Positions 1-3,081 of a stretch of 3,081 nt of DNA are shown here, in pieces; position 1 is the first letter of the stretch, and each line of letters starts with the position of its first letter. Below the pieces are notes generated by a model, which did not search any database, was not told where the DNA came from, and saw only the letters and a list, made by a program, of their open reading frames with translations. The stretch lies in NCBI GenBank assembly GCA_000004985.1, contig GG739234.1. One strand, given 5' to 3'. The stretch comes from Naegleria gruberi. Its lineage: Eukaryota. A program made the translations under genes and the position numbers.

Positions 1-39
1 TGAAAAGGGAAATTATCTCTCATTAGAGACATTAGATCA

Positions 40-2127
40 GTGTTTGGTGAATTGTTACTTAAAATTTACGATTTGGATGGATTTTTAACAAAAGAAGGGG
101 ATTTGAAGGTAAAATTTCTTCATTGGGGTGATGGTTCAAAATTGTTGGGATCTGGGTTTTTCTTAGCTGCAGTTTTGATAGATTATGTTTCGAGTGGTAT
201 CTTTGATACCTCAAACCAACAAGTAATAGCAATTCTGAAAAATTGGTTGCCCTATTATATGAGTTTCCAACAAGAAAATAAGGAGAATATGGAAGAGTTC
301 ATGTTAAAAAGAAAAGATATTATGGAGAGATTAACTGAACCATTTCAACTAACTGAAAAATTAATAGTGACCTTTGAATTACAGGATTATATTGGTGATT
401 TGTCTCATTTTTGGAAAATATTTCAGATAACAAATTCATTCTGTGCTCACTGTATGAGTAATTATCCGAAACTTAAATTCATTCAGGAAAAAACAAAACA
501 AAGGAGAAGCATTTCTACCTTAATAGCTGACTCTTCAAATAAGACACATGGTGTGGGTATTTCATTGCTAAATTGTTTTGGGGAATATGAGAAAAATTGT
601 AATGCTACAACCACTTGTGATGTGTTACATACATTGAAGGGAAGTATTGAAGAAATAATTAATTTATTAGAAAATATTGATGGAATTGATCATGAAATGA
701 TAACAGAAATTCAACAAGAAGTTTTACAGAAAGGGGATGTTTCAATATTAAGTGGAGGTCACACAAGATTATTCCTTTTGAATTATCAAAAGTGGATTCC
801 ACAACTATCCAATCTTCTGAAAGAAAATAGTGATATTTCACAAAGAAGGAAGCAAATATATGAAAGATTTGAATACGGAAAGGATAATTTAGAGTGGATT
901 TTGTTCCTTATGAGTTTAATATCAAAAATGGCCTATAGATCAGAATATAACAAGAAACCATATGAGGTTGCATTTATTGAAACACTAACCTGCTTGTTAT
1001 ATATTTCTTTGAAATCTAGATATGGAGATGAATTCATGACGAAACATTTTCATGGTTTATTAATTCATTTCCCTCAAGACTTTGAAAGAACATTTCAAAG
1101 ATTATGTTCTTGTGAAAGAGGCGAGTTTTTAATTTCTATTCTAAAACGAGTATCTCTTACAGAATCAAACAGAAGTCAAGATAATGCCTTACTTGCAATG
1201 GTTTTATCAGTTACAGCACATTTAGAAAGATTGTTGAGTGGTGAAAAAGATAATTATGTTGATAATTCCAAAATGTTTGATAATATTGATATATCGGATT
1301 GTAATTTTGTTATTAGTGGAAATGTACTGAAATCGAAGTATTTGCCAGAACTAGAATGGTTTTTGGAATATTTAAAATCCAAAAAATTGGATGAATATGT
1401 TAAGGTAGAACGTAATCAACAAAAAATAATAACCTCAATTGAGTTTTGCTTTTCAAATGAATGGGAATTTTGCTCTTTGGATTGTAATTCGTTGATTTAT
1501 GATTCTGCACGTGCTCCAATTGTTGATGCTGCAGAGAATAATTCAAATAGAGAGAAATGCCAATGTGGTAAACCTTGTAATCAAAACTGTACTAGTAATA
1601 TTGTGAAACATTGTAACAAATGTTGCCATATCCAACAATATCAAGATTCTTCCAATAGAAAAGATTGTAAAGCCCACAGAATCTCAAAGAAAGAGTTTGT
1701 TGAAAAATATTTAGTATCTGAATCGGAAGGAATGAAAGCTATTAATTCAAAAAAAGCAAAAGAAAGAAAAATTAAGGATCAATTAAATGAAATTGCAGTG
1801 AGGTTGAAATCAGAACTAGAGAAAGAGGAAGAATCGACGCATAAAAGACGAAAGAACGATGAATCATTTCAGAAAAGGAAGAAATCTAAAAAGGAGAACA
1901 GTATTTTAGATGTAAATAATTCAAAATCAAATGACTTGATTGTGAATAATTTAATTTCGTCACAAAACCATACTCAAACAACCAATTCTACTCAATTAAC
2001 ACTAAGTGCAGACACAGAAATCAACTCCCAACCTAATTTTTCTCAATCACAACACCAAGAATCTCAAATAATTGACACTGGCACCACCAAAAACACAAGT
2101 TCAAGAAGGAAAGGTAGACGAAAATAA
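40..2127 (+). CDS. Uncharacterised protein, 695 codons as drawn in the ORF track. It has a C-terminal Cys/His cluster (about residues 470-546), a basic K/R-rich NLS-like segment and an S/T/N/Q-rich tail, and is probably nuclear. The 5' boundary is uncertain. The frame is open from nt 4, TGA is at 1-3, the first in-frame ATG is at 259-261, and the codon at 40 is GTG. The stop is TAA at 2125-2127.
   Basis: An uninterrupted frame of about 2.1 kb in AT-rich DNA is very unlikely by chance, since TAA and TAG would otherwise be frequent. The composition looks like a real protein, with hydrophobic, helix-like N-terminal two-thirds. The terminal KRRK/KRKKSKK and SSRRKGRRK motifs, the Cys cluster CQCGKPCNQNCTSNIVKHCNKCCH and the low-complexity N/Q/S/T tail are all typical of yeast nuclear proteins. 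I recall no homolog. The two nested antisense ORFs from the track (659..841 minus and 2407..2649 plus) are spurious. Confidence 0.7.
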   Translation: MFGELLLKIYDLDGFLTKEGDLKVKFLHWGDGSKLLGSGFFLAAVLIDYVSSGIFDTSNQQVIAILKNWLPYYMSFQQENKENMEEFMLKRKDIMERLTEPFQLTEKLIVTFELQDYIGDLSHFWKIFQITNSFCAHCMSNYPKLKFIQEKTKQRRSISTLIADSSNKTHGVGISLLNCFGEYEKNCNATTTCDVLHTLKGSIEEIINLLENIDGIDHEMITEIQQEVLQKGDVSILSGGHTRLFLLNYQKWIPQLSNLLKENSDISQRRKQIYERFEYGKDNLEWILFLMSLISKMAYRSEYNKKPYEVAFIETLTCLLYISLKSRYGDEFMTKHFHGLLIHFPQDFERTFQRLCSCERGEFLISILKRVSLTESNRSQDNALLAMVLSVTAHLERLLSGEKDNYVDNSKMFDNIDISDCNFVISGNVLKSKYLPELEWFLEYLKSKKLDEYVKVERNQQKIITSIEFCFSNEWEFCSLDCNSLIYDSARAPIVDAAENNSNREKCQCGKPCNQNCTSNIVKHCNKCCHIQQYQDSSNRKDCKAHRISKKEFVEKYLVSESEGMKAINSKKAKERKIKDQLNEIAVRLKSELEKEEESTHKRRKNDESFQKRKKSKKENSILDVNNSKSNDLIVNNLISSQNHTQTTNSTQLTLSADTEINSQPNFSQSQHQESQIIDTGTTKNTSSRRKGRRK

Positions 2128-2160
2128 ATAAGAATTGGACATGGAAAATTATTAAAGACG
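2121..2160 (+). terminator. Putative 3'-end formation and polyadenylation region of the plus-strand gene. The AATAAA-like positioning element at 2123-2128 overlaps the TAA stop and is followed by an A/T-rich stretch.
   Basis: The sequence 'aaataaataagaattggacatggaaaattattaaag' directly follows the ORF. Yeast-type 3' signals are degenerate, so this is a positional inference only. Confidence 0.25.
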
Positions 2161-2254
2161 CTTTGGCTTAGTGGTGAAATGACAGCCTCATGAGCCAAGT
2201 GTTGCATGTTCAATTCTCAACTCACACATGAAAGATGTCGGACAAAGTCGACCT

Positions 2255-2313
2255 TCCAAAAATAAAAAGACTGAAGCTAGAGAAAAGATAATCTACTCGT
2301 GTTTAAATAAGGT
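2255..2313 (-). terminator. Putative 3'-end formation and polyadenylation region of the PEX7 gene on the minus strand. Read on the minus strand it contains 'TATTTAAAC' and a 'TTTTTATTTTT' efficiency-element-like tract (plus-strand coordinates about 2258-2268).
   Basis: A/T-rich, U-rich elements lie immediately downstream (minus sense) of the TAA stop at 2314-2316. This is a positional inference only. Confidence 0.25.
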
Positions 2314-3081
2314 TTAATCTTCTTCCTCGTCGTCTTCATCTAAATCTTCATCATCTTCGTCATATTCTTCATCTTCAGCACCACCTCCACGAGCAAGTCC
2401 TAAAACTTGTCTGAATTGAGAGACAATTTCATTTTCTTCATCGTCTTCAGCATTTTCATCTTCTTCGTGTGTTGGAACTGGTTCTTCTCCTCTCATCCAA
2501 ACATAGACAGTTTCATCCCAACTGCAACTAGCAATTTCATCCTCCATTTCCAAGTTAAAATCAATACCAACAACAAATTCAGAGTGGTGTTCGTATTTTT
2601 CCAACAGTGCATTATCACTTCCCTGTTCAGTATCCCAAATACACAATGACATGTCATAGCTTACACTACCAATTATATTTTCATCGTGTGGTGAGAATTT
2701 GAGACGTCTAATAGCAAATCCATGTCCAGTTAAAGTACAAATTGATGAATCTTGATTTGAAGATGATCCACTACCCATGATAGCTCCTGATCTATGCTGA
2801 TTTAAATTTCTCAAATCCCATACTTTGATGGTTTTATCTACTGATCCTGTACAAACAATATGTTCATTAAACTTATTCCAATCACATGCCAAAACTTCAT
2901 AATTGTGAACTTGAGCTGATTGTAAACTAGAAATATCATGAATATCCCAAATTTTCATGGTCATATCACCACTGCAACTCATAAAGTGATCACCATTAAT
3001 CGGAGAAAAAATTGTAGAATATACACAATAACGATGTTCATCAAAAGTTTCCATTGAACTACCATTACCACCACTCAAATT
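2314..3081 (-). CDS. PEX7: PEX7, the peroxisomal targeting signal 2 (PTS2) receptor, a WD40-repeat protein. This is a partial CDS. The N-terminal roughly one-third lies beyond the 3' edge of the window, because the frame is still open at nt 3081. The codon the ORF track shows as M at 3078 is TTG, not a real start. The stop is TAA (complement of 2314-2316). The product ends in an acidic extension of about 58 aa.
   Basis: The translated minus strand aligns block-by-block with PEX7 as I recall it. 'SGDMTMKIWD' matches human 'SGDQTLRIWD'. 'VLACDWNKFNEHIVCTGSVDKTIKVWDLRN' matches human '[30 protein letters not shown]'. 'GHGFAIRRLKFSPHDENIIGSVSYDMSLCIWD' matches human '[31 protein letters not shown]' and yeast 'AHGLAIRKVTWSPHHSNILMSASYDMTCRIW'. 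'EHHSEFVVGIDFNLEMEDEIASCSWDETVYVW' matches human 'EHHTEFTCGLDFSLQ..VADCSWDETIKIY'. 'HRYCVYSTIFSP...SCSGD' matches yeast 'NRNCVYQAQFSP...SCSGN'. A variable loop sits between WDLRN and TGHG, as in yeast Pex7. These alignments are from memory and a BLASTP or HMM search is needed to confirm them. Confidence 0.88.
   Translation of the reverse strand, partial: NLSGGNGSSMETFDEHRYCVYSTIFSPINGDHFMSCSGDMTMKIWDIHDISSLQSAQVHNYEVLACDWNKFNEHIVCTGSVDKTIKVWDLRNLNQHRSGAIMGSGSSSNQDSSICTLTGHGFAIRRLKFSPHDENIIGSVSYDMSLCIWDTEQGSDNALLEKYEHHSEFVVGIDFNLEMEDEIASCSWDETVYVWMRGEEPVPTHEEDENAEDDEENEIVSQFRQVLGLARGGGAEDEEYDEDDEDLDEDDEEED

Follow-up and report, generated by a model that had tools for sequence, protein, structure and literature searches.

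A probable RAG1/Transib-like transposase with a conserved cysteine-rich C-terminal module in Naegleria gruberi

A 3,081-nucleotide (nt) stretch of the Naegleria gruberi genome (contig GG739234.1 of assembly GCA_000004985.1; the whole stretch is referred to here as the window) encodes a 695-residue protein with a cluster of Cys and His residues near its C-terminal end. The protein is very likely a RAG1/Transib-like transposase of an element with terminal inverted repeats (TIRs), and the cluster, judged from its relatives, is a conserved accessory module and no chance feature. On the best reading, the window contains the 3' (right) two-thirds of a cut-and-paste DNA transposon. The gene appears to belong to the transposon and not to the host, and the cluster is not part of an ordinary nuclear factor. 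The overall explanation that we favor, and consider reasonably probable, is a RAG1/Transib-like transposase with an accessory DNA-binding C-terminal module that would hold two zinc ions.

The plus strand of the window (32% G+C) carries a single long open reading frame (ORF; 40..2127, 695 codons counted from GTG), and nt 1447 to 1677, to which the cluster had been assigned, are in frame with it and correspond to residues 470 to 546. The ORF is 100% identical to a 622-aa N. gruberi "predicted protein." That public gene model begins at M74 (nt 259), which is an artifact of the truncated contig. The start of the contig interrupts the gene: relatives align upstream of the GTG at nt 40, to about nt 16 (…SLIRDIRSVFG…), and full-length relatives have about 400 extra N-terminal residues compared with the window protein. 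Nucleotides 1 to 3 are an in-frame TGA, for which an assembly-end error, an intron boundary, and a real stop are the candidates.

A word-index search of 5.8 billion proteins returned a metagenomic fragment (57% identity) and, from Willaertia magna, a protein of 1022 aa (34%), and no other relatives. Word-index homologue searches with the module alignment or with a 24-sequence alignment added nothing to these. When 1.84 billion representatives were searched exhaustively with a profile, 37 proteins were recovered, including a second Willaertia fragment and a transcript of the amoebozoan Planopodium desertum; further relatives came from unlabelled metagenomic or assembly contigs, and one was a 1060-aa protein filed under a Nitrosopumilus metagenome-assembled genome (MAG). 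A scan of metagenome contigs matched only bacterial 2Fe-2S proteins with a chance "CSCERGEFLL," and these were rejected as relatives. Pfam detected no transposase or zinc-finger family in the whole protein, ten relatives, eight isolated modules, or the 24 members of the alignment. The sole Pfam matches among the relatives were Ulp1 in the protein P0007 and SAP in the fragment P0037.

The initial annotation had proposed that the N-terminal 460 aa be searched for a DDE/RNase-H-like fold. This fold was found, which identifies the protein as a transposase. The AlphaFold2 (AF2) model, for which the 24-sequence alignment was the input, had a mean predicted local distance difference test score (pLDDT) of 81.8 and a predicted template modeling score (pTM) of 0.79. 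When this model was compared with the PDB by Foldseek, RAG1 and HzTransib accounted for all of the top 35 matches (E 3.4e-8 to 2.5e-3, over about 465 aligned columns), and the next match was Hermes, with an E value of 0.02. The fold of the core matches the RAG1 and integrase catalytic cores. The kinship with Mutator-like elements (MULEs) that had been suggested was not borne out, the enzyme being RAG1/Transib-like.

A series of motifs could be followed by eye through the family (W-x-D-G; G-D, 15 residues, CxxC; D-x-L-H-x2-K-G; H-x4-H-x-P; C-E-R-G-E…K…T-E-S-N-R), and the core motif residues were kept in 85 to 100% of the aligned relatives (Table 1). The order and spacing of the motifs agree between the window protein and mouse RAG1. 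The D-D, D-C, C-D, D-H, and H-E spacings are 89, 15, 56, 141, and 16 in the window protein, counted to E359, and 108, 19, 62, 142, and 20 in mouse RAG1, counted to E962. For this comparison, residues 595 to 1007 of mouse RAG1 were checked against the PDB and agreed with 4wwx/9jpu except at one residue. D31 lies within strand 20-35 of the AF2 model and, from motif order and spacing, would correspond to RAG1 D600. D120 stands 15 residues ahead of the CxxC, and RAG1 D708 stands 19 residues ahead of C727. The C(2)C motif is one of those that define the EnSpm/Mirage/Chapaev/Transib/RAG1 clade (PMC12730594), and the active site of RAG1 includes H795 (PMC7204232). The catalytic Glu may be either E359 or E362: hhalign pairs E359 with RAG1 E962, and an ExxE-to-ExxE register pairs E362 with it. 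The core triad is proposed to be D31, D120, and E359 or E362. C135, C138, H338, and H343 would form the internal structural zinc site of the core, and H197 would be active-site proximal.

The core has the RAG1/Transib fold in the AF2 model and, on the best reading, belongs to the EnSpm-Mirage-Chapaev-Transib-RAG1 ("CMCT") clade. The family has the RNase-H-like DDE triad, C135xxC138, H197, and H338x4H343, all features of that clade, and whole-core structural similarity to RAG1 and HzTransib was found with Foldseek on the AF2 model. The Pfam CACTA, Plavaka, KDZ, and RAG1 models did not match the family; to our knowledge, no structure of an EnSpm-type enzyme exists. The window family differs from RAG1, RAG1L, and Transib in several respects. 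Its C-terminal module is different, its hosts are amoebae of the Heterolobosea (distant relatives occur in Amoebozoa), and its TIRs begin with CTC (CAC in the window copy), unlike the heptamer of the recombination signal sequence. No RAG2-like partner gene was seen for the window element.

In three other elements, one from W. magna (L001) and two others (L002 and L005, the latter metagenomic), 18- to 20-nt inverted repeats bracket the gene, and the three pairs of repeats are clearly homologous. An IUPAC pattern derived from the TIRs of these elements had a single match in the window, at 2283-2301, with 1 mismatch; the pattern was found in 0 of 200 shuffles. The termini read CTCTGG, CTCGGG, and CACGAG, so that the window end begins with CAC and the ends of the three other elements begin with CTC. 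The right TIR follows the transposase stop codon by 155 nt, and the equivalent distance in Willaertia is 127 to 146 nt. A Willaertia 15-mer with up to 3 mismatches allowed missed the window TIR; it took the alignment of several elements and the degenerate pattern to reveal it.

The initial annotation had speculated that the protein might be domesticated and transposase derived. The second half of this idea was upheld, the transposase being of the RAG1/Transib-like kind, and the first half was not. As a domesticated nuclear host protein, it would use the Cys module as the chromatin- or DNA-binding domain of a host factor. This would fit with the single copy annotated in N. gruberi, with an ORF that is open for 695 codons and has all catalytic and ligand residues intact, and with a genome that is poor in transposable elements (0.28%; bioRxiv 10.64898/2026.06.24.734286). 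However, a family-typical TIR follows the gene, and retained catalytic residues are expected of an active transposase. The relatives are bounded by TIRs and several of them are decayed, namely, the Willaertia copy with an in-frame stop, the split gene of L005, and a truncated copy (L003). There is also no synteny between species: the neighbor is a PEX7-like gene in Naegleria, a PROPPIN-like gene at Willaertia L001, and an unrelated WD40 gene at L003, and synteny was rejected. Domestication is therefore considered quite improbable. In the Willaertia L001 copy, the in-frame TAA (5985-6000, …DGIK*DIFDD…) falls in a conserved stretch and is bridged in the annotation by a 36-nt "intron"; the probable explanation is recent inactivation of the copy or an error in sequencing.

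Residues 470 to 546 contain 11 Cys and 3 His. The cluster reported at the outset was thus real, but the count of 13 Cys given for it was too high. Of the 20 Cys of the protein, these 11 fall in 77 of the 695 residues (11% of the length; hypergeometric P = 1.2e-6). The core C-x-C-x3-C-x3-C-x7-C-x2-C-C-H had been read exactly and comprises C507, C509, C513, C517, C525, C528, C529, and H530. Across seven modules that are 21 to 33% identical, C507, C509, G510, C517, C525, C528, C529, C543, and H546 were invariant, and C470, C478, C482, C513, H524, and H530 varied among the relatives. The initial annotation would have been undermined by a lack of conservation of the Cys and His positions; instead, all eight ligand columns were invariant. 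The true module covers nt 1558 to 1677 plus a conserved short helix that extends to about nt 1710, and its consensus is C-x(1-2)-C-G-x6-7-C-x5-9-C-x2-C-C-x10-18-C-x(2-4)-H-[ND]-x-S-x2-[DE]-F.

In the full AF2 model, a beta-bridge between residues 506 and 512 forms the C-x-C knuckle. Helix 526-535 begins at C525 and bears C528 and C529, and a loop bearing C543 and H546 leads to helix 550-557. Seven Cys and one His make eight ligands, enough for two zinc ions, and from this conserved pattern the C-terminal module is likely to bind zinc. The module (residues 507 to 557) is family specific and would most likely hold two ions. A knuckle combined with ligands at the N-terminus of a helix is the treble-clef arrangement, and the two-site partition proposed here follows from it. 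Site 1 would be formed by C507, C509, C525, and C528, joining the zinc knuckle to the N-terminus of helix 526-535 in a treble-clef-like manner, and site 2 would be formed by C517, C529, C543, and H546.

The basic region adjacent to the cluster, which had been described as resembling a nuclear localization signal (NLS), was confirmed. Residues 561 to 620 include 20 Lys and Arg (pI 9.8), and the protein ends with SRRKGRRK; residues 618 to 695 have a pLDDT below 50. The region ahead of the module is acidic (residues 401 to 500, pI 4.4), and the module itself has a pI of about 9.0 in four of the seven cases. Together with the basic helix and NLS, the module would most likely be an accessory DNA-binding domain, which would hold the transposase on the TIRs of about 20 bp or on subterminal DNA. 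Such an arrangement has a parallel in piggyBac, a cut-and-paste transposase in which a C-terminal cysteine-rich zinc-binding domain lies beside an NLS and binds subterminal repeats. The piggyBac transposase has an unrelated fold and belongs to a different superfamily, and no Pfam match was obtained for the window module.

A parallel in position is the CTT* of invertebrate RAG1L, a Cx2Cx3GHx4C tail that directly follows the core, is needed for full activity, and binds TIR DNA (PMC7204232). In the window protein, too, the C-terminal domain of a RAG1-like core gives way directly to a Cys/His-rich segment, and a functional analogy is plausible. The Cx2Cx3GHx4C pattern, however, is absent from the window protein by regular-expression search, and the window module has eight ligands in another pattern over about 50 residues. 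The analogy is one of position, and homology is not claimed. By this analogy the module may bind transposon-end DNA, a proposal in which our confidence falls a little short of even.

Several results weigh against the explanation as a whole. An hhalign comparison of the sequence with mouse RAG1 was not significant (Prob 0.7, E 0.08); it aligned only the H(4)H…E stretch, in which FHGLLIHFP was paired with RAG1 FHKTLAHVP, a match that is weak by itself. The family profile matched no PDB sequence at E values up to 10, and none of the 24 alignment members matched the Pfam RAG1 model. Because sequence comparison with RAG1 is not significant, the family link is drawn from predicted structure and motifs. 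With respect to the ends, most CMCT members have 5'-CA..TG-3' termini and 2- to 5-bp target-site duplications. No target-site duplication was evident at the two elements with both flanks available, L001 (4040-4069 / 7353-7382; …gatta before and attgt… after the element) and L005 (12-39 / 3365-3392; …taccg and gccat…). In these two elements, the flanks share only 1 nt (a/a and g/g), or 2 bp (TT and CC) if one noncomplementary terminal nucleotide is given to the element, and they are mirror symmetric rather than direct repeats. The narrower traits of RAG1 and Transib were not seen, there being no 5-bp duplication at L001 or L005 and no CACxxTG heptamer-like termini. As for the module, it was modeled poorly when alone (pLDDT 57.5) and had no structural neighbor by Foldseek. 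Near-neutral pI values (6.4 to 7.7) in three of the seven modules weaken a simple electrostatic argument for DNA binding. Finally, TIR binding could fall mainly to the N-terminal Cys/His region of the full-length relatives, and the C-terminal module would then have another role.

These last points bear on the main rival, in which the module binds zinc but has a structural or protein-protein role. It would then serve in oligomerization or docking on the core, like the RING/zinc dimerization domain of RAG1, and the ends would be recognized by the N-terminal Cys/His region, which is absent from this contig. The rise in module pLDDT to 80 to 86 in the full model fits packing on another domain, the N-terminal region is of the kind that usually recognizes TIRs, and the interleaved eight-ligand pattern resembles cross-brace protein-interaction fingers. 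The module profile also had weak matches to MYND and C1 domains (E 0.04 to 0.1), but these were not significant. Against a purely structural role stand the strongly basic helix and NLS directly after the module and the binding of TIRs in RAG1L by a Cys/His tail at the same position. We consider this alternative rather unlikely. The N-terminal motif on which it draws, C-x5-H-x7-H-x-C … C-x2-C … H, is common to three relatives (P0003 residues 1-55, P0004 15-75, and P0005 1-52). This motif, probably a further zinc finger, is a candidate for TIR recognition; truncation of the contig explains its absence from the window.

The accessory zinc module that we favor could not be placed in a known family. 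No family in Pfam or the PDB covers the isolated module, and neither the protein nor the family and module alignments had a significant match in the PDB; for the module profile, the sole matches were to C2H2 fingers, at their CxxCG knuckles, and, weakly, to C1, MYND, and GATA. The nearest pattern is the SHI/STY/LRP1 finger of plants (DUF702, C3HC3H), which has the same ligand order: C-x2-C-G, a lone Cys, a C-x2-C-C doublet, and a terminal C...H. In hhalign, the module profile aligned with SHI/STY fingers over 35 columns (Prob 73%, E 3.1e-5), covering the first six ligands only, and Cys-rich profiles easily give spurious matches. The four SHI/STY fingers used were confirmed to be DUF702 (E values of 1e-27 to 1e-32). 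In contrast to these fingers, the modules of the window family have longer loops and no internal His of the C3HC3H type, and the last C...H pair was not aligned. Pfam DUF702 did not match the window module and gave E values of 1.5 and 2.2 on two of eight relatives (cutoff, 20.6 bits). This is a resemblance and not membership. The metagenomic relative P0010 has a second, shorter Cys module at its extreme C-terminus (residues ~600-651, KCGECNKKFLAKKCSQKVCKSCCSDRNCPSHKVK), and this copy is the one most similar to the plant SHI/STY finger.

The zinc-binding folds named in the initial annotation were SWIM, CXC/tesmin, and the zinc ribbon, with a MULE-type protein in mind. A CxC...CxH string can indeed be read in the Naegleria sequence (C507-x-C509 ... 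C528-C529-H530), and a subthreshold SWIM match (E 0.05) occurred elsewhere in the distant relative P0030. However, the sole CxC...CxH reading depends on H530, which is Leu or Asn in relatives, and Pfam SWIM did not match the window protein; CXC/tesmin and the zinc ribbon likewise had no Pfam match. Conservation and the fold comparison refute the SWIM/MULE reading, and the chance that any of these folds applies is close to negligible.

The lineage and its C-terminal module are undescribed in the libraries searched, of which Pfam-A was the sole one bearing transposases and has no model for the family. As a result, routine annotation leaves the family and its relative fused to a Ulp1 protease as hypothetical proteins, one of which is filed under an archaeal MAG. 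An unannotated "predicted protein" of a model amoeba becomes a recognizable transposase. It adds a RAG1/Transib lineage from beyond the animals, fungi, and plants, one in which the zinc site and active-site histidine of RAG1 are retained. Here they are combined with another C-terminal zinc module and with different ends, which provides a comparison point for the recruitment of DNA-binding tails. It is conceivable, if doubtful, that the element is the founding member of a superfamily-level lineage, so far undescribed, of RAG1-like transposons in amoebae, with a range covering Heterolobosea and distant relatives in Amoebozoa and environmental eukaryotes. Such a lineage would have a core whose fold is at least as near to RAG1/RAG1L as to insect Transib, a new two-zinc C-terminal DNA-binding domain in the role of CTT*, and unusual ends (CTC..., no obvious target duplication). 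If this were true, a DNA-binding Cys/His tail behind the core would date far back in the RAG1/Transib lineage instead of being a novelty of metazoan RAG1L.

Table 1. Positions of features in the window and of the inverted repeats of related elements
Feature	Sequence	Position	Strand	Remarks
RAG1/Transib-like DDE transposase core (RNase-H-like, ZnC2/ZnH2-like, and C-terminal helical parts)	Window	16..1239	+	Truncated at contig start
D31, proposed first catalytic Asp (W-x-D-G)	Window	130..132	+	RAG1 D600 equivalent; D in 11/13 aligned relatives
D120, proposed second catalytic Asp	Window	397..399	+	RAG1 D708 equivalent; D in 16/17
C135-A-H-C138, C(2)C motif	Window	442..453	+	RAG1 ZnC2 C727/C730 equivalent; C135 15/16, C138 16/16
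D194-V-L-H197, D(2)H motif	Window	619..630	+	RAG1 D792-A-L-H795 equivalent; H197 20/20, D194 18/20
H338-x4-H343, H(4)H motif	Window	1051..1068	+	RAG1 ZnH2 H937/H942 equivalent; each H in 15/16
E359-R-G-E362, proposed catalytic Glu motif	Window	1114..1125	+	Compared with RAG1 E959-G-N-E962; E359 15/17, E362 16/17
Small alpha/beta domain between core and Cys module, residues ~420-470	Window	1297..1449	+	Strands 422-426, 454-458, 464-469; helix 435-447; pLDDT 77-97
C470, C478, C482, nonconserved Cys	Window	1447..1485	+	In relatives T/I/L/N, L/S/A/R, E/S/P
Conserved C-terminal Cys module, eight candidate zinc ligands, then short helix 550-557	Window	1558..1710	+	Invariant ligand columns in 7 modules
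Long basic helix 570-618, NLS-like KRRK...KRKKSKK, then disordered tail to stop codon (2125-2127)	Window	1747..1893	+	Helix pLDDT up to 95
Right TIR, CACGAGTAGATTATCTTTT (minus-strand reading)	Window	2283..2301	-	19 nt; homologous to TIRs of three other elements
PEX7-like WD40 protein, C-terminal half with acidic Asp/Glu tail	Window	2314..3078	-	Pfam WD40 E 9e-24
Inverted repeat CTCTGGTAGGTTATCTTTTT	Willaertia magna L001 (JBEGDK010000112.1)	4050-4069 / 7353-7372		Perfect, 20/20 nt; gene 4122-7226
Inverted repeats CTCCGCGTGATTATTTTTT and CTCTGGGTGATTATTTTTT (reverse complement)	L002	1-19 / 4503-4521		Encodes intact 1099-aa P0004
Inverted repeats CTCGGGTGGTTTATCTTT and CTCGAGTGGTTTATCTTT (reverse complement)	L005, metagenomic element	22-39 / 3365-3382

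The PEX7-like gene on the minus strand of the window is a host neighbor outside the element and runs off the contig. The best natural single-stretch PDB match of its product was the Pex7 PTS2 receptor (3w15_A, E 6e-32). The transposon end sits in the 3' flank of this gene, with 12 nt between the TIR and the stop codon of the gene. The truncated Willaertia copy L003 (W. magna JBEGDK010000164.1, 8001-8788) lacks its 5' part and has only the Cys module, the tail, and the right TIR (8770-8788). This TIR and the stop codon of a WD40 gene on the minus strand are 5 nt apart, an arrangement also seen in the Naegleria window. The two WD40 genes, 27% identical over 137 aa, are not orthologous, and the shared arrangement may be a coincidence or a sign that the 3' flanks of genes are preferred.

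Between the stop codon and the TIR, stretches that look tRNA-like by eye (TAGTGGT … GTTCGAnTC) were lined up by MAFFT in the window (2158-2236), L005 (3231-3300), and L002 (4392-4466). A tRNA-like block was rejected, since ARAGORN and Rfam detected nothing in it and pairwise local alignments were within the range of shuffles (z up to 2.4). In L002, about 1 kb (3432-4502) separates the transposase stop codon from the right TIR. This segment contains further small called ORFs, one with a weak NHL match, and may include cargo or a second gene. In P0007, a Ulp1/Peptidase_C48 domain (residues 876-1058, E 3.5e-21) is fused C-terminally, after the Cys module and basic tail. The 3.2-kb contig that encodes P0007, deposited as part of a Nitrosopumilus MAG, is very likely a misbinned eukaryotic contig.

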